From positions 64,001-128,000 of the IMG/VR virus record IMGVR_UViG_3300026097_000980: a DNA stretch of 64,000 nucleotides. The stretch is one strand, 5' to 3'. The notes under the pieces are model-generated. The model was given only the letters and a program-made list of their open reading frames with translations, did not search any database and was not told where the DNA came from. This document shows positions 7,559 through 55,197 of the stretch, one piece after another. Source of the stretch: a virus. The position numbers were made by a program, and so were the translations under genes. Each line of letters opens with the position of its first letter. The stretch's first letter is position 1.

Positions 7559-8208
7559 GTTAGCACCTCAGAGTTATGATAAGAGCCGGAAATATTTTGA
7601 TTCTCACATGCGGCATTTAATTTTTCCTTCCATTCGTTAGTTGAATCGAATCGGTGAATTATTAAATGATAACGATCCTCGTTGCTATTGTTATAAACAG
7701 AATGTGGATAATGTATGTTCATGACATAGGTATTTCCAGGCTTCATATACAAAGATTCGCCGTCTCCCCACTTCCAAAGACATGTTTCGGGATTGCTTAA
7801 ACTAATATTTGTATTATCAAGCAATGGAACACTCGAATCAGTATGTTCGGAAATATAGCCTCCTGCTTCTAAAAGCATAAATCTAACTCTTCCTAGTAAG
7901 TTACTAGGAAAATAATTTTTAACAAAATCAACAGTTTTAGGACAATATTTAGATAATTCAGTCCAGTGCATATCATTTATTACTTCGTCAATACTGTTAT
8001 AACCATAGTCTTTCCAATGACCCGACTGCTGGTGCCGCCACCCGTGAAGAACTAAACTTCGCCATCCTTTATGATCATAACTTCCCGGACGGTGCGTCAC
8101 GAAATGTGTTTTCAATGCTTTTGCTTCTTCTAACATGCTAATGTGGTCTACATCGATATCTAGAATAACATGTTTTGCATTTGAAACAAAATAATCTTTA
8201 CTAATCAT
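7555..8208 (-). CDS. aspartyl/asparaginyl beta-hydroxylase-like oxygenase
   Basis: GRVRFMLLEAGGYISEHTD...HSVYNNSNEDRYHLIIH. Confidence 0.8.
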   Translation of the reverse strand: MISKDYFVSNAKHVILDIDVDHISMLEEAKALKTHFVTHRPGSYDHKGWRSLVLHGWRHQQSGHWKDYGYNSIDEVINDMHWTELSKYCPKTVDFVKNYFPSNLLGRVRFMLLEAGGYISEHTDSSVPLLDNTNISLSNPETCLWKWGDGESLYMKPGNTYVMNIHYPHSVYNNSNEDRYHLIIHRFDSTNEWKEKLNAACENQNISGSYHNSEVLT

Positions 8209-8247
8209 TATGCCTTATCCTTGAACTATATTTAATTAAATAAATTC

Positions 8248-14193: not shown

Positions 14194-14233
14194 AATTTAT
14201 TTTATTATACACTAATTATTAAAAAAGTCAATA

Positions 14234-14941
14234 TCAAGTAGCACGACTGACCAACATATCACGAATATGTCCAATCGCCTTTGTGGGATTGAGTCCTTTA
14301 GGACACACACTCACACAGTTCATGATTCCTCTGCAACGGAACACTGAGAACGGATCATCCAGTTCGCTCAGTCGTTCTTCTGTGGCTGTGTCTCTGCTAT
14401 CAGCAAGATAGCGATATTGTGCTAACAGTGCTTGCGGTCCTAGGAACTTGTCTGGATTCCACCAAAAACTAGGACAACTTGTTGAACAACAAGCACACAT
14501 GATACACTCGTACAGTCCATCTAGCTTTGCTCGTTCTTCTGGAGATTGTAGTCGTTCTTGATTGGGTGTAGGCTCGTCGTTTTGTAGATAAGGTTTTACT
14601 TTTTGATACTGCTTATAGAACTGTGTCATATCAACCACTAGATCGCGAATAACAGGCAACCCAGGCAGTGGACGAATAACCAATCTACCTTTGCGATCTA
14701 CAACTTCACTCACAGGAGTAATACAGGCAAGTCCATTCTTGCCGTTCATATTAACACCGTCACTGCCACAAACACCTTCGCGGCAACTTCTACGATATGT
14801 AAAACTTTGATCCCGTTCTTTGATCATACCCATAACATCAAGCACCATGAGATCCTTGCCTTCAGGTAGATCAAACTCTACCTCTTGCATCCAAGGTACG
14901 TCGTCTGTTTCTGGATTATAACGATATAAACTTACTTTCAT
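14234..14941 (-). CDS. sdhB: succinate dehydrogenase iron-sulfur subunit
   Basis: RRSCREGVCGSDG, CIMCACCSTSCP, CRGIMNCVSVCPKGLNP. Confidence 0.97.
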   Translation of the reverse strand: MKVSLYRYNPETDDVPWMQEVEFDLPEGKDLMVLDVMGMIKERDQSFTYRRSCREGVCGSDGVNMNGKNGLACITPVSEVVDRKGRLVIRPLPGLPVIRDLVVDMTQFYKQYQKVKPYLQNDEPTPNQERLQSPEERAKLDGLYECIMCACCSTSCPSFWWNPDKFLGPQALLAQYRYLADSRDTATEERLSELDDPFSVFRCRGIMNCVSVCPKGLNPTKAIGHIRDMLVSRAT

Positions 14942-16090: not shown

Positions 16091-16390
16091 TCACCCTTCT
16101 CGCTCTAAATCCCATTGAACTCGGTTAGGTGGTGCAGGAGGAGTTCTTGACTTCTCCTTGGTGAATACATAAAAAGTAAAGAACAAACAAGTAAGAAGCA
16201 CTGTGTGTCCAATAATATTGTATCCAATGAATAATAGTTCTGCTGTGTAGATACCAAATGCAATACACCACATTGCCGCAAGAATATTGCTTGCTAAGAA
16301 CTTGTATTCCATAGGACTGTTGCGCAGTCCATTCTTTGTAGCATCCAAAATGCCGTAAGCAAAAGTGCCCAAGTTAATCCAACCCATCAT
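16091..16390 (-). CDS. hypothetical membrane protein
   Basis: Two hydrophobic segments. Confidence 0.5.
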   Translation of the reverse strand: MMGWINLGTFAYGILDATKNGLRNSPMEYKFLASNILAAMWCIAFGIYTAELLFIGYNIIGHTVLLTCLFFTFYVFTKEKSRTPPAPPNRVQWDLEREG

Positions 16391-17526
16391 TTTAAAATCT
16401 CCACGATTCTTTCTGCTAATTGTTTAAACCATTCAGCATCCCTGCCCCGTGTAGTCTCTGCGGCTGTGCCAATCCTAATACCACTTGTTTCTACAAAACT
16501 TCGTGGATCATTTGGTACACCGTTCTTGTTCACTGTGATGCCGTGCTCCTCCAGTAAGTCTGCGGCTTCACGACCTGAATGTTTACTTTCACTCAAGTCA
16601 AGTAATAGTATATGCGAATCCGTGCCTCCTGTCAACAGTTTAAAGCCATTATCTACAAATACTCGTGCCATTGCCTGTGCATTGTGTACAACACGACTTG
16701 CATAGTCAATAAACTCGTCTGTGTTTGCTTCTGCGAATGCCTGTGCCTTTGCCGCAACAATGTTCATCAACGGTCCGCCCTGTGTGCCTGGGAAGATAGC
16801 TGAGTTGATTTTCTTAGTAAAGAACTCGTCGTTCCAAAGAATGATGCCTCCTCGAGGCCCACGCAGAGTTTTGTGTGTTGTGCTTGTGACAACATCTGCA
16901 TAATCACAGGGATTAGGATATGCTTTACCAGCAATCAACCCACTGTAGTGTGCCATGTCTACCATGAAGATTGCACCTACTTGATCAGCAATGTGTCTAA
17001 ACTTTTCCCAGTCAATGCGTCTAGGATATGCACTTGCACCTGCAATAATCATAGCAGGTTCTACTTCCAGTGCTTGTTTCATAATAGCATCATAGTCCAG
17101 CCAACCTTCGTCGTCTACACCATAACTGTGTGCTTCAAACCATTTGCCACTTAGGTTGGCAGGAGATCCGTGTGACAGGTGTCCACCACTTGCCAAGTCC
17201 ATTCCTAGAATCTTATCACCAGGTTCCAAAAATGCTTTGAACACAGCTAGGTTTGCATTCGCGCCTGAATGCGGTTGAACATTGGCAAATTCACAGCCGT
17301 ATAGTTCTTTGAGTTCGTCAATGGCAAGTTGTTCAATTTCGTCCATGTGTTCGCAACCGTTGTAGTAACGCTTGCCTGGATAACCTTCAGCATACTTATT
17401 AGTGAATACACTGCCGCAAAGCATCATTACGTAGTCACTGGCAAAGTTTTCTGAAGCAATAAGCTCAACAGTATTTCTTTGTCTTTCGTCTTCTTTCTCT
17501 AATATATTAACTATTCTTTTATCCAT
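16387..17526 (-). CDS. glyA: serine hydroxymethyltransferase
   Basis: ELIASEN, NKYAEGYPGKRYY, TTHKTLRGPRGG; start set at MDKRIV. Confidence 0.97.
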   Translation of the reverse strand: MDKRIVNILEKEDERQRNTVELIASENFASDYVMMLCGSVFTNKYAEGYPGKRYYNGCEHMDEIEQLAIDELKELYGCEFANVQPHSGANANLAVFKAFLEPGDKILGMDLASGGHLSHGSPANLSGKWFEAHSYGVDDEGWLDYDAIMKQALEVEPAMIIAGASAYPRRIDWEKFRHIADQVGAIFMVDMAHYSGLIAGKAYPNPCDYADVVTSTTHKTLRGPRGGIILWNDEFFTKKINSAIFPGTQGGPLMNIVAAKAQAFAEANTDEFIDYASRVVHNAQAMARVFVDNGFKLLTGGTDSHILLLDLSESKHSGREAADLLEEHGITVNKNGVPNDPRSFVETSGIRIGTAAETTRGRDAEWFKQLAERIVEILK

Positions 17527-17753
17527 TTTAAGATCCTGCTCGTAAGAAGATAGGCAACACAAAGATAAAGAAAACCAGCAACCAGAAGTTTAGATACAGC
17601 CTATCCAACTTGTCGCTCATTTTCTTGATGCGAAATACTTCACCTTCGATGTATTTCTGCAGGGTGGGATCATCCGTGGTCCGTCGTGCTACTTCCTTGG
17701 CTTCTTTTTCGTATTCTTCGTCTGTTTGACCGAACATGATGTTTCCTCAAAAA

Positions 17754-17830
17754 TGGTACCGCTGAGTGGACTCGAACCACCACTGTATAGAACCTAAATC
17801 TATCGCCTCTACCAATTGGGCTACAGCGGC
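17754..17830 (-). tRNA. tRNA-Leu(TAG), short variable loop
   Basis: ATAGA-TT-TAG-GT-TCTAT arm, GTTCGAG T-loop, ACCA. Confidence 0.9.
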
Positions 17831-21836: not shown

Positions 21837-22490
21837 TTAAAATTCAATCCATGTAGCCATTAAGTATTTGACATTGCTTCTGGGCGGATTACCCCTATGC
21901 GTATGTGTATAGTTTCCTGGATAAATTAGAAGAGTTCCTTCTACCGCAGTTTCGGCTTTGTTATGATATAAAAACTCTGTCTCTCCACCATCTTTTACTG
22001 TGTTAAGGTATAGGGTAACATTCATAAACCTATTACACTCTGCTCTACCCGATTGCTCCCAGTGCCATACATGAAATCCTCCGCCGATATCTGTTCTTTG
22101 AATTTGTACTTCGTTAATGTGTTGCGGGTGGAACTGTCTAGTATCTACTAAACTATACCGGTCTGCATACTGATTATAGCATTCCCACACTGTTTCGATG
22201 AACGTTTTCTGTATGGCTGGAACTCCGACTACACCCATTGTATGTACCGAGTTACTGATCAGATCAGATGTATAAAATAGTTGATTATCTTTAATGTGTT
22301 TCGGAACTTTGTCATTTTGTTGCCGAGATTTTCCAAATCCCATTTTATCCATTTGTTCGAAATATTGAATTGCGCTTCTGCAGTAACTAGGACTGAACGC
22401 TCCTTCAAATCTACCGATAAAATTATCAATTTCAACTTTACAATTTTGCAACAGTATCTCCTTACAGCTTCGAATCAATGAACTTCGCAC
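21837..22490 (-). CDS. 2OG-Fe(II) oxygenase (prolyl-hydroxylase-like)
   Basis: GGGFHVWHWE...LYLN...GGETEF...THTHRGNPP..KY. Confidence 0.85.
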   Translation of the reverse strand: MRSSLIRSCKEILLQNCKVEIDNFIGRFEGAFSPSYCRSAIQYFEQMDKMGFGKSRQQNDKVPKHIKDNQLFYTSDLISNSVHTMGVVGVPAIQKTFIETVWECYNQYADRYSLVDTRQFHPQHINEVQIQRTDIGGGFHVWHWEQSGRAECNRFMNVTLYLNTVKDGGETEFLYHNKAETAVEGTLLIYPGNYTHTHRGNPPRSNVKYLMATWIEF

Positions 22491-22532
22491 TAATTAATAG
22501 TAACAAAAGAATATGCCCTTGTCAACCTAAAA

Positions 22533-22608
22533 TGGAGTGAGGGACGAGATTCGAACTCGCGTAAAACAGATTTGCAGTCTGGTGCCTAACCAATTCAGCC
22601 ACCCTCAC
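22533..22608 (-). tRNA. tRNA-Cys(GCA)
   Basis: Cloverleaf, CT-GCA-AA loop, TCCA end. Confidence 0.93.
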
Positions 22609-22612
22609 AAAG

Positions 22613-22688
22613 TGGAGCGGATAGGGAGAATCGAACTCCACTCTCTACGGCTTGGAAGGCCGAGGACACAACCCGTGTGCTTACCCGC
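22613..22688 (-). tRNA. tRNA-Gly(TCC)
   Basis: CT-TCC-AA loop, TCCA end; atypical D-arm. Confidence 0.88.
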
Positions 22689-22739
22689 ATTGTAAAAAAC
22701 CCTTGGCAGAGTCTATGACATCACCCAAAGGCCGTGTTA

Positions 22740-22815
22740 TGGTGCAACCTCCAGGGATCGAACCTGGTTCTTCGGAACTTCAACCCGACGTGAGGACCAC
22801 CTTCACCAAAGTTGC
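22740..22815 (-). tRNA. tRNA-Phe(GAA)
   Basis: TT-GAA-GT loop, ACCA end. Confidence 0.88.
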
Positions 22816-22819
22816 AATA

Positions 22820-22903
22820 TGGTGGAGAGTGTTGGATTCGAACCAACGCGATGTTACTGCCAGATTTACAGTCTAGTGCTTTCGACCACTCAGCCAACTC
22901 TCC
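22820..22903 (-). tRNA. tRNA-Tyr(GTA)
   Basis: CT-GTA-AA loop, long variable region, ACCA end. Confidence 0.93.
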
Positions 22904-22909
22904 TCTTAA

Positions 22910-22983
22910 TGGCACCGGATGAAGGAATCGAACCTCCAGTAAGAGATTTGGAGTCTCCTGTGTTTCCATTACACCAATCCGGC
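22910..22983 (-). tRNA. tRNA-Trp(CCA)
   Basis: CT-CCA-AA loop, GCCA end. Confidence 0.93.
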
Positions 22984-22989
22984 TTTATA

Positions 22990-23065
22990 TGGTCAGGATA
23001 GATGGATTCGAACCACCGTCTCCGCGCCCCAAACGCGGTGCTAAACCAACCTCAGCTATACCCTG
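22990..23065 (-). tRNA. tRNA-Pro(TGG)
   Basis: TT-TGG-GG loop, ACCA end. Confidence 0.93.
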
Positions 23066-23070
23066 TAAAA

Positions 23071-23145
23071 TGGCTCCCGGTGTTGGAATCGAACCAACCA
23101 ATGACGGATTAACAGTCCGCTCCCCCACCTTGGGGGCAACCGGGA
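23071..23145 (-). tRNA. tRNA-Asn(GTT)
   Basis: CT-GTT-AA loop, GCCA end. Confidence 0.9.
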
Positions 23146-23153
23146 ATAAAAAT

Positions 23154-23226
23154 TAGCACGGTAGGACTCGAACCTACACCACCCAAACAAAAACTGCCAG
23201 GCGTTCTACCAGTTAAACTAAATGCC
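23154..23226 (-). pseudogene. degenerate tRNA-like element
   Basis: Good D-arm (TAGTTTAACTGGTAGAAC) and T-arm (GTAGGTTCGAGTCCTAC); weak acceptor and anticodon arms; no CCA. Confidence 0.55.
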
Positions 23227-23240
23227 AATAAACTTATTAG

Positions 23241-23302
23241 AAAACACTTGCTGGCTGGACTCGAACCCACTGTAGACCTCAAAATACTACAACAAGTGCT
23301 TT
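23241..23302 (-). ncRNA. tRNA-like RNA lacking one arm (long closing stem, one hairpin, T-arm)
   Basis: AAAGCACTTGTTG/CAGCAAGTGTTTT stem enclosing a TGTAG/CTACA hairpin and GGGTTCGAGTCC. Confidence 0.4.
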
Positions 23303-23412
23303 ATAATAAGTGCCAGGCTGTCCCTGACTTGACCTATCTCATTACATCCAGGCCGCCGCCCATTTATTTTTTAAAGTGCTTGTCGGATCGCGTTTCCTTT
23401 GCACTATACATT

Positions 23413-23442
23413 AAAAAACCCCGGAGTATTTCTACTTCGGGG
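23413..23442 (-). terminator. intrinsic (attenuator) terminator upstream of the tRNA array
   Basis: CCCCGAAGTA-GAAA-TACTCCGGGG-TTTTTT. Confidence 0.85.
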
Positions 23443-23472
23443 TCCAGTATAATCTTGTTGTGCTACTCTAGA

Positions 23473-23577
23473 CTATACTGAACCTCCATGACGATCATTA
23501 TACCAGCCACAGAACGATCCTGCCACCGTTGGCTGGTTCTTGGGCTTGATAATCATGTACATCGTTTTGTTCATCAT
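23473..23577 (-). CDS. attenuator leader peptide MMNKTMYMIIKPKNQPTVAGSFCGWYNDRHGGSV
   Basis: Hand translation; lies between a promoter and a terminator; its 3' end forms the antiterminator. Confidence 0.75.
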   Translation of the reverse strand: MMNKTMYMIIKPKNQPTVAGSFCGWYNDRHGGSV

Positions 23578-23583
23578 AGTCTT

Positions 23584-23612
23584 ATATTACGACACTTGCT
23601 CTACTGTGTCAA
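23584..23612 (-). promoter_or_regulatory. sigma70-type promoter giving a leaderless leader-peptide/tRNA transcript
   Basis: TTGACA-17nt-TAATAT-6nt-ATG. Confidence 0.75.
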
Positions 23613-23635
23613 CCTCTTTTTACAAATTTATTTAT

Positions 23636-23908
23636 CTATTCTTCGTCCCATGCGTCCATATATCGAACAAACATGTTTTTACCAATTTCATACAGTCCTA
23701 CACCTGTAGCATAATCGCATCCGCTAACATGCAACACCGCCGATCCGTTGGCATCTAAACTACAGGCAACAAATTCAGTCATTTCTCGATTTTCAACTCG
23801 TCGTCTCATTTCATCAAGAGCTTCCAACAAGTCAGCTTGTCGTTCCTCCCAGAATTGTTCTTCTTGATCCTGTTTTTTATCTTTATCGTTAATGCTTACA
23901 ACTTTCAT
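23636..23908 (-). CDS. hypothetical protein
   Basis: ORF in operon. Confidence 0.5.
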   Translation of the reverse strand: MKVVSINDKDKKQDQEEQFWEERQADLLEALDEMRRRVENREMTEFVACSLDANGSAVLHVSGCDYATGVGLYEIGKNMFVRYMDAWDEE

Positions 23909-33561: not shown

Positions 33562-34248
33562 TTATTCAATATCGGGGAATAGGCAATCTTGTATGAATGC
33601 TCGGACATCCTCTTCGTCCAGGCCTAATGCGGCCATTGTGCGAGGAGTATGTGGATTTTGTTTTTGGTAATACGCATAACGATTTTGTGCGGTGATGCCT
33701 TGTTCGCGATCGCCTTGATCATTAAAGAACGCAATCTCATCTAGGTAAGCATACACATTATGTTCAGCCATTGCGTAAATCTGTTCTAGTTCATCTTCCT
33801 TGTTAACATTACCGGCAGCGACCATATGCTCAGAAAATATAGCTTGCGCCCAGTCTGGTAACTCTCTCTTTTTACGCCAGTCTAGTTTGGCAACTTCTTG
33901 AGCAAATCCTTCAATCATAACATGATGTGGATTTTGTGTTGCTGAGTAATCGTGAAAGCATCCTGTAATTTTATTTTTGCCTGCAATAACATCGAATCCA
34001 AATATAGGACCGTCATTTTCTAGGTGTGGGAAGATGCAACAATGCATCATCCACAGTCCTTTGGTATCGCGAGCATCAACTACATCCACATGAGCCCTGC
34101 GATACTGATCACTATTCCAAACACGATTAACCCACCCAGGCTGATTGAAGCGATCCATACCAGGCTCCGATACCTCAGTTCCTGTTTTGTCAAACGCCGC
34201 TTCAAAAGTCTGCTGTACTCCTATCAATGTATCCCAAACTTGACTCAT
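33562..34248 (-). CDS. pcyX: ferredoxin-dependent bilin reductase (PcyX/PcyA family)
   Basis: RRAHVDVVD, MMHCCIFP, PIFGFDVIAG, RELPDWA.AIFS, QKQNPHT. Confidence 0.8.
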   Translation of the reverse strand: MSQVWDTLIGVQQTFEAAFDKTGTEVSEPGMDRFNQPGWVNRVWNSDQYRRAHVDVVDARDTKGLWMMHCCIFPHLENDGPIFGFDVIAGKNKITGCFHDYSATQNPHHVMIEGFAQEVAKLDWRKKRELPDWAQAIFSEHMVAAGNVNKEDELEQIYAMAEHNVYAYLDEIAFFNDQGDREQGITAQNRYAYYQKQNPHTPRTMAALGLDEEDVRAFIQDCLFPDIE

Positions 34249-35534
34249 TAGTATCTATAAGTCTCTAGTTTGTAAGGTCCTTGTACAGGTACACTAATAT
34301 ACTTTGCCTGTTCTTTTGTGAGCACAGTTAGGTCAGCACCTAGTTGTTCTAGATGTAGTCTAGCTACCTTCTCGTCTAGATGTTTTGGTAGAAGATATAA
34401 CTTGCCTTTTTCGTAGTTTTCTGCATTATTCCACATTTCAATTTGTGCAAGAACCTGGTTAGTAAAACTATTGCTCATTACATAACTAGGATGGCCAGTA
34501 GCACAACCTAGATTTACTAATCTTCCTTTTGCTAGAACGATAATCTTTTTACCATCAGGAAATTTTACATGATCAACCTGTGGTTTAATTTCATCCCACT
34601 CATATTTTTCTATGCCTTTAATATCAATTTCACTGTCAAAATGGCCAATATTACACACAATAGCATTGTTTTTCATTTTAATCATATGGTCGTGTGTGAT
34701 AACATCGATGTTGCCTGTGGCTGTAACAAAGATATCTGCTTTGTCTGCGGCATACTCCATTGTGGTAACTTTGTACCCTTCCATAGCCGCTTGGAGTGCA
34801 AGAATAGGATCAATTTCAGTAATCCATACTTGAGCACTTAATGCTCTTAATGCCTGAGCAGATCCTTTGCCAACATCTCCATATCCACAAACGACAGCAA
34901 TTTTGCCAGCAATCATAACATCTGTTGCTCTTTTAATTGCATCTACACAGCTTTCACGGCAACCATATAGATTATCAAATTTAGATTTAGTAACACTGTC
35001 ATTTACATTGATTGCAGGAATTTTAAGTGTGTTATTTTCAATTCTTTCCAACAGTTTGTGAATACCTGTAGTAGTTTCTTCTGTAACTCCTACAATGTCT
35101 TCCAACAGTTCAGGATACTTGTCGTGAATATAACCTGTAAGATCGTGGCCATCATCCAGTAGAATGTTAGGTGTCCAGCCATTAGAACCTCTCAGTGTTT
35201 GTTCGATACACCACCAATACTCATCTTCAGTCTCACCTTTCCATGCAAATACTGGAATACCTTGATCAGCCAAAGCGGCTGCCGCATGATCTTGAGTAGA
35301 AAAAATATTACAACTACTCCAGCGAACATCAGCACCTAGCTCTACTAGTGTTTCAACTAACACTGCTGTTTGAATAGTCATGTGCAAACTACCTGTAATT
35401 CTAGCACCAGCTAGAGGTTTTTTACCTGCATACTCTTTCCTAATTGCCATCAATCCTGGCATTTCGCCTTCGGCAATCTCTATTTCTTTTCTGCCGTAAT
35501 CTGCAAGGTTAATATCTTTAATTTTGTAATCCAC
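34248..35534 (-). CDS. ahcY: S-adenosylhomocysteine hydrolase
   Basis: [33 protein letters not shown]. Confidence 0.97.
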
Positions 35535-39146: not shown

Positions 39147-40748
<1,602 letters not shown>

Positions 40749-46080: not shown

Positions 46081-46112
46081 AAAAAACCCCGGAACATTTC
46101 TATCCCGGGGTT
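46081..46112 (-). terminator. attenuator terminator
   Basis: CCCCGGGATA-GAAA-TGTTCCGGGG-TTTTTT. Confidence 0.85.
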
Positions 46113-46131
46113 AAGTCTAGCACAATAGAGC

Positions 46132-46188
46132 CTACTCCCCGGGAGAGTATCCTAATAGTAGTAGACTGCTGTGTGCGATTGTCTTCAT
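46132..46188 (-). CDS. Leu-type attenuator leader peptide MKTIAHSSLLLLGYSPGE
   Basis: CTA CTA CTA TTA run; CCCGGGG in the leader is complementary to the terminator 5' arm. Confidence 0.75.
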   Translation of the reverse strand: MKTIAHSSLLLLGYSPGE

Positions 46189-47994: not shown

Positions 47995-48064
47995 TTTATT
48001 TCCTTCTGTGTGTGATATTGTTTAGATATCTAAGTATAGTTATAAAAGAAAAGCACCCGAAGGT

Positions 48065-48388
48065 GCTTTTCTGACTTTTGGATTACAAGGCAGTCAACCC
48101 CGAAGCCTCATGCGGCCAGTGCGAATGTTTCATCATTTGCAGTTATTTTATTTTGCTTCTACGACCGGGTATACTCCCAATCCTAACGGCTTTCACATTG
48201 CCGGTAACTCCACTCGCCTAATCATCTCGCCGTCGAATCCTTGATCTGCCCCATCATAGATACACCACGTTCTTCTCCTACTATTTCACCTTTCGGTCTA
48301 CTCTCTCGGAGTTGTAGATGTATCTATGGTGGAACAGCCGGGAGTCGAACCCGGGTCCGTCAACCTTTCGGTCTGCTTCATCGTTACA
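48065..48388 (-). ncRNA. ssrA: circularly permuted (two-piece) tmRNA, tag ANDETFALAA
   Basis: T-arm/ACCA piece ends at 48327, upstream of the GGGGCAG 5' end at 48252; G3.U pair; tag frame 48140-48108. Confidence 0.9.
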
Positions 48389-48395
48389 GTATTAT

Positions 48396-48680
48396 TTAAC
48401 TATCTTTTTTGCTGTCTGTCAAGTCTTCTAATTGCTTTTTTAAATTTAAGACTTGGATATGCAGTAACATGTTTTCCACAACCAATTTAGTCATAGATGC
48501 AAGGAGCACAACTTTGTCTTCTTCTGTGTACTCTTCTTTATCGAATTGCTCCAGGATAGATGTTCCTATCATTTTAAAGGCTTCGTCTTTGCCTACAGAT
48601 AATTTATCCCAAGGAATAGGATCTCCCGATTCCGCTTCTTTAGCGATGTCTACTAATAATTCTAAATCAATTTCTCTCAT
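48396..48680 (-). CDS. hypothetical protein
   Basis: ORF. Confidence 0.5.
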   Translation of the reverse strand: MREIDLELLVDIAKEAESGDPIPWDKLSVGKDEAFKMIGTSILEQFDKEEYTEEDKVVLLASMTKLVVENMLLHIQVLNLKKQLEDLTDSKKDS

Positions 48681-52845: not shown

Positions 52846-55197
52846 CTATAATTTACACGCTTCGCAATCTTCATCTTCTTCGAATCCAATAACACTGTGT
52901 CCGTTAGTTTGTATTTCTAATTTAGGTTGTTCTGTTGTGTTGAGAAGTTTATCTTCTTGTTTTGCACCGCTTTTGTTAATTAGACTGTAATAGAATGTTT
53001 TTAGTCCCCAATAGTGTGCCTGCATTAAATTTTTAGCAATCATGGTACTAGGAACTTTACCTCCTTCAAAGTAAGCAGGATTATAAAATGTATTGGTGCT
53101 AATACTCTGATCAACATACGCCGCCAAAACTGCCGCAGTTTTTATATACCCGACGCAGTCTGTCTGTTGCCACATCAACTGGTATTTCTTTTTAAGTTTA
53201 TGATACTCGGGAACTACTTGTACAAACGACCCTGCTTTTGATTCTTTGGTTGAAATCAGTGCCATTGGCATTTCGATACCGTTAGTACTGTTAATAACAA
53301 CTGAGCTTGACTCTACCGGAGCAATAGCTGTTAGTGTGGCATTATGAATTCCGTATTGTTTCATATCAGCTCGTAAAGTTTCCCAGTCAAGTTCTGGAGT
53401 AAAATCAACCAAGTCGTTAACTCCCGGAGCGCGGCATTCCCAAGGAAACACTCCACGGCCGTACCGAGTCTTACTTGAATCTTTGCAAGCGCCTCTTTCT
53501 TTAGCAAGTTCGACACTGGCTTCGGTTAAGAAAAACGCTTGATGCTCCATCCATGTTTTTACTTCTTCTAGTGAATCTTGTTCGCCGTACTGTAAATTCC
53601 TCTTAGCATGCCAATACGCAAGATTGGTAACACCGATGCCTAAAGGACGGATTTCGTCATTGCTTAATCGACTTTGGACACTTAAGAAGTCTTGATAGTC
53701 TAGGATATTACACAAACTACGCTGTAAGATTCTACATGCCCTGCGCATGTCTTCCGGATTTCTAAAGGAACCCCAATTAATGCTTCCTAAGGTACACAAC
53801 GCTATGCGTCCATCTTCATCGTCCAGGCGCTTAAATGGTTTTGTGGGCAGTAGAATCTCACAGCATAGGTTTGATTGGTAAATTGTGTGATACTCAGGAT
53901 CAAAAGGACCTTGATTCATCACATTGTCAATGAACACAAGATAAATGCGTCCAGTGTCAGTGCGTTCTTTCAGTATGCCTGAGCGGAACACTTCATCTGC
54001 TGAGATTGTTTTCTTTCTAATGTCTGTGCGCTTTTCATATTTTACGTACAGCCTTTCGAACTCCTCCGTGTTAGAATAAAATGCTTCGTACAGTTCAGGT
54101 ACTTCATTAGGATCAAAGAATGTTATTTCTTTTTGTTCTTTAAATCTTCTCCAAAAGAATGCATTGAGGACGACACCATAGTCCATATGTCTGACTCGGG
54201 TTTCATCGGTTCCTTGATTATTTTTAAGAACAATAAGATCGTCAAACTGGTAATGCCAAATAGGATAAAACACTGTAGCACTTGCATTTCTAATCCCTCC
54301 TTGCGAGCAACTACGAAGATCACCAAACCACTTCTTAAGGAATGGGATCATACCTGTGTGCATAATCTCTCCGCCTCGAATAGGAGCACCTAGCGGACGA
54401 AGCCTACCAATTTCAAATCCAATACCTGCTCGCTTTGAAGCATACTTCGCCATCATTTCGCCTGACGCAAAAATACTATCAAGATCATCGTCCGAACGAA
54501 TTAACACGCAAGAACTGAACTGTTTTGTTTTAGTACCAAGTCCGGCAAGCACAGGAGTGGCAAGGGTAAACAAGCCGTCCGAGGCACAGTTATAATACTC
54601 TTTGATTAACTTCATTCTTGTGCGATTAGGTTCTTCACGATGCATAACGGTTGCGGCGGCAATCATATATCTAACTTGAGGCGTTTCGTATATGGTCTTA
54701 GTACTTCTGTTCTTGACTAGATACTTTTCAATCATCTGTTCAATTGCAGAATAGGAATAGTTCTCATCCTTTTCGTGATCGATGATTGTGTTCATACGAT
54801 CCCAATCCTCTTCTGTGTACCACTCAAGAAGTTCAGGTGTGTACAATCCGACCTGGACGTTCTTTTTTACAATATCATACAGGCTCGGAACTTCGTATGA
54901 GCCGTATACATCTTTGCGTAACATAGATAATCGCTGTTTGCCTGCGACATATTGATAGTTTGTATGGCCGACTCCTGGATTTGATTCTACATTAATAAGG
55001 TCGACGATTGCTCTCAGTGTTATTTCGTCAATTTCTTTTGTGGTAATACCGTCATAAAAGTGCGGCTGTGCATTAATTTCGATCATGCTCTGACTTACGT
55101 CGGCAATTCCTTGACAAACTTTCGCTATCTGTGCCTGCCATTTTTCGACTGCTAATATTTCTTTCTTTCCGCTTCTTTTAATGACTGTGATTGACAT
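52846..55197 (-). CDS. nrdA: ribonucleotide reductase class Ia alpha subunit
   Basis: ATP cone, SSC, SNLCCEI, C-terminal CEACKL. Confidence 0.97.
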   Translation of the reverse strand: MSITVIKRSGKKEILAVEKWQAQIAKVCQGIADVSQSMIEINAQPHFYDGITTKEIDEITLRAIVDLINVESNPGVGHTNYQYVAGKQRLSMLRKDVYGSYEVPSLYDIVKKNVQVGLYTPELLEWYTEEDWDRMNTIIDHEKDENYSYSAIEQMIEKYLVKNRSTKTIYETPQVRYMIAAATVMHREEPNRTRMKLIKEYYNCASDGLFTLATPVLAGLGTKTKQFSSCVLIRSDDDLDSIFASGEMMAKYASKRAGIGFEIGRLRPLGAPIRGGEIMHTGMIPFLKKWFGDLRSCSQGGIRNASATVFYPIWHYQFDDLIVLKNNQGTDETRVRHMDYGVVLNAFFWRRFKEQKEITFFDPNEVPELYEAFYSNTEEFERLYVKYEKRTDIRKKTISADEVFRSGILKERTDTGRIYLVFIDNVMNQGPFDPEYHTIYQSNLCCEILLPTKPFKRLDDEDGRIALCTLGSINWGSFRNPEDMRRACRILQRSLCNILDYQDFLSVQSRLSNDEIRPLGIGVTNLAYWHAKRNLQYGEQDSLEEVKTWMEHQAFFLTEASVELAKERGACKDSSKTRYGRGVFPWECRAPGVNDLVDFTPELDWETLRADMKQYGIHNATLTAIAPVESSSVVINSTNGIEMPMALISTKESKAGSFVQVVPEYHKLKKKYQLMWQQTDCVGYIKTAAVLAAYVDQSISTNTFYNPAYFEGGKVPSTMIAKNLMQAHYWGLKTFYYSLINKSGAKQEDKLLNTTEQPKLEIQTNGHSVIGFEEDEDCEACKL

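Follow-up and report, generated by a model that had tools for sequence, protein, structure and literature searches.

The stretch of viral DNA examined here (the window) spans 64,000 nt and corresponds to bases 64001-128000 within a single 155.5-kb contig, IMG/VR record IMGVR_UViG_3300026097_000980, with a G+C content of 39.8%. On the minus strand of the window, at 22533-23612, an array of transfer RNA (tRNA) genes is preceded by a short unit consisting of a promoter, a small open reading frame (ORF), a hairpin and an intrinsic terminator. A first-pass annotation of the same DNA had described this unit as a ribosome-stalling attenuator of the tRNA array. It is treated below as a candidate ribosome-mediated transcription attenuator; all features of the locus lie on the minus strand.

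The unit opens with a sigma-70-type promoter, P1 (TTGACA-17-TAATAT, 23584-23612), which matches the consensus at 10 of 12 positions. In a 12-sequence alignment with related loci the -35 hexamer was invariant and the -10 hexamer was conserved. An A/T-rich box (GATAAATAAA ... AAAAAGAGG, 23613-23636) abuts the -35 hexamer upstream and was nearly invariant in the same alignment; it is a candidate UP element. The leader ORF (23473-23577) has 34 codons and a TAG stop codon at 23475-23473, and it begins with a tandem ATG ATG. Its ATG at 23577 lies 6 nt past the -10 hexamer, so that the expected transcription start coincides with or adjoins the first base of this ATG and the mRNA would be leaderless; the ATGATG at this expected start was invariant in the 12 relatives. 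The promoter, the leaderless ATG and the 34-residue ORF were therefore all present where the first-pass annotation had placed them, and the encoded peptide does, as it had noted, contain 18 of the 20 amino acids, Glu and Leu being absent. No tandem repeats of one codon, as in a cluster of regulatory codons, were found in the window leader.

Within the ORF, the codons TTC TGT GGC TGG TAT AAT (23497-23514) encode F-C-G-W-Y-N and constitute the proposed stall zone, 10-27 nt ahead of the first antiterminator strand. Minimum-energy folds also placed a hairpin within the ORF (CCAGCCA ... UGGCUGG, 23503-23536), both arms of which were invariant among the closest relatives of the window (the window clade) and wobble-compatible in locus L009. 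Nascent leaders were on average about two standard deviations more stable than shuffled sequences, and the in-ORF hairpin is predicted to be a candidate pause or synchronisation site for RNA polymerase.

The leader is followed by an intrinsic terminator at 23413-23442 (CCCCGAAGUA-GAAA-UACUCCGGGG with a run of six T), with 10-nt arms, a GAAA loop and a folding energy of -15.3 kcal/mol. The terminator was present as annotated, albeit with one A.C mismatch, because of which a simple consensus terminator scan missed it. Folding and covariation delimited the two strands of the proposed antiterminator. The 5' strand (23470-23487) consists of a G-run, GGAGG, and then the 5' arm of a core hairpin that includes the stop codon. 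The 3' strand (23439-23455) ends in CCCC (23442-23439), and the terminator uses these same four bases at the foot of its stem. When the terminator 3' arm was withheld, the minimum-energy fold was a 17-bp hairpin between 23487-23470 and 23455-23439, with an energy of -23.5 kcal/mol, so that the pairing claimed in the first-pass annotation is real. The full sequence, by comparison, formed the terminator together with a core hairpin of 11 bp (-28.4 kcal/mol). The two structures had been thought mutually exclusive; this is true of the basal pairs between the G-run and CCCC but not of the rest, since the core hairpin coexists with the terminator. The leader fold had a z-score of -4.9 relative to chance, and the terminated RNA, of approximately 165 nt, was highly structured.

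Relatives of the leader were found through pattern scans of viral (IMG/VR) and metagenome contigs from uncultured phages. A scan of IMG/VR with the terminator motif produced six loci where a promoter-ORF-hairpin-terminator unit occurred inside tRNA arrays, and a looser motif (CCCCG-N5-GAAA-N4-CCGGGG-T5) produced 32 loci. The metagenome scan added the window-like loci L042, L043, L045, L047, L048 and L053, plus the distant L040. Across these, the same layout recurred, some 13 distinct versions being represented, each with a promoter of the sigma-70 type, a 25-40-codon ORF, a hairpin between a G-run and the CCCC of the terminator, and a T-run. Besides the window-like loci, it was seen in L009/L006, the L005 group, L040, L015/L022, L017, L020/L033/L036, L021, L025, L026 and L030, and every locus of the family was situated 125-610 nt upstream of a tRNA array on the same strand. 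The ORF began either with a leaderless ATGATG at +1 or, where a 5' untranslated region existed, after a Shine-Dalgarno sequence. The window clade, L009, the L005 group and L040 all share one terminator sequence, most of whose bases were fixed by the search pattern. A protein search with the leader alignment retrieved members of the L005 group only, and a peptide-based scan for loci added no others. On this comparative evidence the candidate attenuator belongs to a conserved leader family in uncultured phages. The trp-type layout proposed in the first-pass annotation has thus gained in strength, given its recurrence with compensatory stems, in-frame indels and a characteristic stop codon placement, as described below.

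The competing hairpin was characteristic of leaders linked to tRNAs. With the terminator 3' arm withheld, the upstream G-run paired with CCCC in all 10 leader types tested, with z-scores mostly of -3 to -5. The controls were ordinary gene-end terminators that matched the same pattern but lacked tRNAs; pairing with CCCC was seen in three of these 11, with z-scores near 0. Overall, a competing hairpin was present in 11 of 12 tRNA-linked cases and 3 of 11 controls (Fisher P = 0.0025). Among eight window-like sequences, 99.3% of the cells in the 17-pair helix were paired, against 29-49% for slid controls, and there were compensatory double changes at three of its pairs; the covariation check of the antiterminator that had been proposed therefore came out in its favour. 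One of these double changes turned the last codon from Val to Ala, from which it follows that RNA pairing outranks the peptide at that position. Between leader types, the bases flanking GGGG and CCCC varied and yet remained complementary.

The position of the stop codon was constrained. In all types it followed the start of the G-run by 8-18 nt and preceded CCCC by 25-33 nt. Given the usual size of a ribosome footprint, a ribosome terminating there would cover the 5' strand of the antiterminator and would not be able to reach the terminator. Judged by these distances, the geometry is that of trp-type attenuators and not of the pyrBI type.

Several observations suggest that the leader is translated. 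No interruption of the ORF was seen in any version, whereas stop codons were usual in the other five frames. All indels in the ORF were multiples of three, in contrast to the hairpin loop, where 1-nt indels occurred. Variable sites in the window clade were spread over the three codon positions in the ratio 7/8/7, and 13 of 16 variable codons changed the residue, so that selection does not act on the peptide sequence as such. Its composition was maintained nonetheless, in that some replacements amounted to swaps, for example Y-N to N-Y, or H and Y exchanged. In 12 of 13 versions the leader held 18-20 distinct amino acids within 25-40 residues, and the closest relatives of the window leader held 19. 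Matched windows from the phage's own genes averaged 13-16, and nucleotide shuffles of the ORFs 14-17. This near-pangram composition (i.e., one including nearly every amino acid) was highly significant when combined by Fisher's method across 11 types (P = 1.6e-9), or across seven conservatively independent types (P = 1.1e-6). In those 12 versions the leader frame was the highest or tied in diversity among the six frames, with the value of 18 in the window equalled by one reverse frame. At the level of the family there is thus strong support for the proposal of a leader that samples many codons.

The relationship between the leader and the particular tRNAs that follow it was less close. In the first-pass annotation the F-C-G-W-Y-N run was seen as a mirror of seven downstream tRNAs, but a six-residue run made up entirely of seven randomly chosen amino acids had a probability of 0.04-0.06, and F-C-G-W was invariant in relatives, where the next two codons read Y-N, N-Y or N-H. 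These relatives have near-identical leaders and arrays of 16-22 tRNAs with a shared order, (Lys)-Asn-Pro-Trp-...-Tyr. The mirror interpretation is accordingly not supported; the window has a reduced array, and the leader in front of it is general and inherited. Of 128 amino-acid types counted across the arrays, 125 were contained in the array's own leader. The fit of each leader to its own array slightly exceeded that of shuffled pairings (0.485 versus 0.436, P = 0.006; 0.64 versus 0.58, P < 0.001), such that the expected tracking of tRNA content by leader codons was detectable but small, and partly due to one locus, L026. The L026 leader was also the one leader of low diversity, with 11 amino-acid types, and its match to the array was not determinable because the tRNA-like genes there are non-canonical. 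The L026 array (7629-8240, + strand) comprises unusually long or non-canonical tRNA-like genes, of which one alone reached the Rfam tRNA threshold.

In the window, the distance from the terminator to the first tRNA is 186 nt. This conserved, non-coding spacer (23228-23412) includes a mini hairpin, a GGGCGGCGG block with a covarying hairpin, and a long A/U-rich stem. The mini hairpin, GGA-AACGCGA-UCC, is located just past the terminator (23385-23397); its 7-nt loop was invariant in relatives and its 3-bp stem covaried, reading GGU/ACC in L009 and GGG/CCC in L040. The A/U-rich stem (23233-23310) extends for about 18 bp with one mismatch and has a T-arm-like GGGUUCGAGUCC at its tip. In relatives, the tip carried a more complete tRNA-like insert (L053, L009), an insert of another kind (L047) or the loop alone (L048), and the structure may be a processing stem with swappable tRNA-like cargo. 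In the window, the interval from the terminator (23413) to the first tRNA contained no sigma-70 promoter scoring at least 9/12, from which it follows that the array should depend on read-through. The T4-type late promoter motif was not enriched in the genome and was absent from the spacer. Rfam searches at gathering and E-value thresholds identified only tRNAs and transfer-messenger RNA (tmRNA), and no leader, T-box or small RNA family; across 22400-23700 there was no match to a T-box or any leader family at E-values up to 1.

The first tRNA of the array (23153-23227) is non-canonical, scoring 37.3 bits against the Rfam tRNA model while eliciting no call from ARAGORN, and it had been omitted from the first-pass list. 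It aligned with genes called as tRNA-Lys(ttt) in L053, L045 and L047, of which it is the ortholog; the region of the anticodon loop in this Lys-type gene is unusual, reading CAGUUUAUG in relatives and CAGUUUUUG in the window. It is followed by tRNA-Asn(GTT), Pro(TGG), Trp(CCA), Tyr(GTA) and Phe(GAA) (22740-23145) and finally tRNA-Cys(GCA) (22533-22608), all listed previously and all identified by both ARAGORN and Rfam. The Gly gene in that list was represented by a Gly(UCC)-like sequence (22617-22688) with a weak Rfam match only. The order Asn-Pro-Trp-Tyr was the same as in relatives.

The sequence evidence is probably best explained by a ribosome-mediated (leader-peptide) transcription attenuator, which gates read-through from P1 into the phage tRNA array. 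A fast ribosome would reach the stop codon, cover the G-run and melt the 5' arm of the hairpin; the freed CCCC would pair with CCGGGG, and transcription would end at the T-run. With a ribosome delayed at any codon, the long hairpin would form first and hold CCCC, and while CCCC was held, more polymerases would go on to transcribe the spacer RNAs and tRNA genes. As nearly every amino acid is present once or a few times, the leader would report general decoding speed, not the supply of one amino acid. The outcome would be a feedback supply of phage tRNAs, for example as host tRNAs decay or are cleaved. A wider proposal is possible, though somewhat less probable: the widespread 'pangram' leaders of phages may be general sensors of decoding speed, in which a slow-down at any codon, whether host tRNAs are decaying, the cell is starved or defence nucleases are cleaving tRNAs, would turn the terminator off and raise the output of the tRNA array and of the tRNA-like RNAs at its head.

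A number of observations weigh against attenuation. Competition between antiterminator and terminator was limited to the basal 4-6 pairs (GG.GGUU with GACCCC), the terminator state was favoured by 4-5 kcal/mol, and the predicted barrier to refolding was low (3.4 kcal/mol in the window and 0-8.7 kcal/mol in relatives); on modelled RNA energetics alone, the switch looks leaky toward termination. There was no convincing anti-antiterminator (1:2) pairing, for the G-run paired upstream about equally in shuffled sequences, and the pairing proposed for this role was rejected as no better than these shuffles. A second terminator-like hairpin with a run of six T (22694-22733, -14.0 kcal/mol) separates tRNA-Phe from the Gly-like tRNA within the array. 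The pangram score of the window by itself was only marginal (18 distinct amino acids in 34 residues, P = 0.04-0.14), and leaders hold amino acids for which the array has no matching tRNA, making the 'on demand' logic loose. In addition, the W-Y-N codons of the window form a near-consensus extended -10 element, part of a promoter-like site within the ORF (GTGGCA-18-TATAAT, with TG upstream; 23497-23526; 10/12 matches). This TGgTATAAT site was weaker in those relatives where the corresponding codons are AAT TAT or AAT CAT; as the main promoter it was rejected for this reason, and it is probably incidental.

The position of promoters downstream was also a concern. An independent promoter beyond the terminator, which the first-pass annotation would have counted against the attenuator, was not seen in the window; however, a strong sigma-70 promoter lay between the terminator and the tRNAs in 8 of 13 leader types, including most close relatives, and in these the attenuator cannot be the sole control of the array. 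The promoter of most close relatives (TTGACA-17-TATACT) was located approximately 180-206 nt past the terminator, and was followed by a conserved, apparently structured non-coding segment of about 300 nt, without an Rfam match, before the tRNAs. The module was delimited in L053 (approximately 8900-8580, - strand) and L009 (4008-4416, + strand), and was present also in L047, L045, L042 and L040, but the window and L048 lack it.

These promoters are one argument for a second explanation, in which P1, an ORF or structured RNA, and a dedicated terminator make up a self-standing small gene or small RNA; this cassette would travel with the arrays and not control them, its terminator being a plain stop and the tRNAs being transcribed from other promoters or through leakage. 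The thermodynamic dominance of the terminator, the low barrier and the highly structured, terminated RNA would all suit such a cassette, and some RNAs and peptides derived from attenuators are known to act in trans (rnTrpL/peTrpL: PMC6614838, PMC7298713). Yet the peptide shows no conservation between types, and within the window clade its sequence is free to change. Moreover, a plain terminator needs neither a G-run matched to CCCC, the feature that distinguished tRNA-linked leaders from controls, nor a stop codon fixed at the G-run strand, and no other promoter was seen for the window's array. An autonomous cassette is therefore considered unlikely.

Still less probable is a switch composed of RNA only, in which the choice between hairpin and terminator is made by a factor bound to the leader RNA, such as a protein or an uncharged tRNA, and constraints on that RNA have produced the ORF incidentally. 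Within the window clade, a block encoding A-G-S-F-C-G-W was conserved along with the terminator at the nucleotide level, synonymous sites included, and RNAalifold proposed pairing between this block and the G-run region; the setting among tRNA genes also recalls T-box logic. Against this, no Rfam family matched, the T-box included, and the in-frame indels, the start signals present in every type, the frame-specific pangram composition and the swaps that preserve it are hard to explain without translation. That the arrangement arose by chance, with an ordinary terminator of the upstream 90-codon gene accompanied by an incidental ORF and complementarity, might be entertained from the marginal statistics of the window and from a paralogous terminator that follows an ordinary gene, but is very improbable and already contradicted by the comparative data, in which the whole unit was conserved with covariation in many contigs, always before tRNA arrays.

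The paralogous terminator just mentioned (46110-46081, - strand) ends a unit at window 46081-46188, which follows a gene of 197 residues and has no tRNA downstream. An 18-codon ORF precedes the terminator and includes CUA CUA CUA UUA, four Leu codons that are readable by the phage's own tRNA-Leu UAG and UAA; this ORF ends at a GGGG able to pair with the CCCC of the terminator. The unit may be a further attenuator, of a Leu type, or simply a terminator.

The source of the contig is a large phage. The whole contig encodes 11 tRNAs identified by ARAGORN and a permuted tmRNA, and no close relative of it was found among 50,697 deposited phage genomes; BLAST comparison of the region and two other leader types with these 50,697 records also recovered no homologue of the leader. 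The upstream 90-codon ORF had no relatives, and the route to synteny through flanking genes gave nothing; relatives of the downstream ORF, an oxygenase-like sequence of 217 residues, were not adjacent to tRNAs in the synteny search. Elsewhere in the genome, a single tRNA-Ser gene (window 14194-14245, - strand) and a Met-Arg-Leu array (genome C1, 145630-145705, + strand) have plain sigma-70-type promoters, with no leader ORF or terminator at either, and a tRNA-Leu at 17830 sits immediately after a gene. The permuted, two-piece tmRNA (window 48017-48419, - strand; tag ANDETFALAA) was identified by ARAGORN and matched Rfam RF04321 with 81.7 bits; it represents a second translation-rescue function in the same phage. 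Other genes on the minus strand of the window are a fragment of an SdhB-like Fe-S protein (14260-14560), named from the DNA reading alone, and the auxiliary genes for serine hydroxymethyltransferase (16387-17562), S-adenosylhomocysteine hydrolase (34248-35534), a GroEL-like chaperonin (39147-40745) and class I ribonucleotide reductase (52846-55197).

The unit shares much with the textbook trp-type attenuators (trpL, hisL, leuL, pheL), namely a promoter-proximal short ORF, a terminator 5' arm that pairs alternatively upstream, a stop codon that covers the upstream strand, and a terminator more stable than the antiterminator. It is unlike these in its leaderless start, in lacking a tandem regulatory codon and a clear 1:2 hairpin, in the overlap being confined to a few basal pairs, and in being encoded by a phage and directed at tRNAs instead of biosynthetic enzymes. 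Multivalent attenuators are known, the ilvGMEDA leader sensing Ile, Val and Leu, and the thr leader Thr and Ile. One leader similarly senses several amino acids in these cases, but the phage leaders, with 18-20 amino acids used one to four times each, would be general decoding sensors rather than two- or three-way ones. Attenuation also controls aminoacyl-tRNA synthetases, through pheM-pheST in Escherichia coli and as targets of Gram-positive T-boxes, the latter binding tRNA directly and without an ORF. Like the phage element as interpreted here, these systems read tRNA charging and control a gene of the translation apparatus; unlike the T-box, the phage element has an ORF, and it showed no T-box match. 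A generic signal is used by the leaders of whiB7 (PMC10274678) and vmlR (PMC9226507), where stalling anywhere in an upstream ORF relieves premature termination. Those leaders control host drug-tolerance genes and not tRNAs, and pangram composition is not reported for the two. Full-text literature searches found no description of attenuation for phage tRNA arrays. The unit differs, then, from known leader-peptide attenuators in its tRNA target, its phage owner, its pangram leader and its small terminator overlap.

The presence of tRNA genes in phages has usually been explained through codon usage, and to our knowledge their regulation is largely unknown. A more recent explanation is rescue from tRNA-degrading defences, as when a T5 tRNA neutralises PARIS (PMC11464382). 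The element is small and self-contained, and could serve as a generic sensor of translation stress. If the pangram design is borne out, it would be a new solution within attenuation, with one sensor for all amino acids, and would provide these phages with a self-correcting tRNA supply and a built-in counter-defence. A leader switch before tRNA arrays, if true, would mean that phages gauge how much translation the infected cell can sustain and set their production of tRNAs accordingly.

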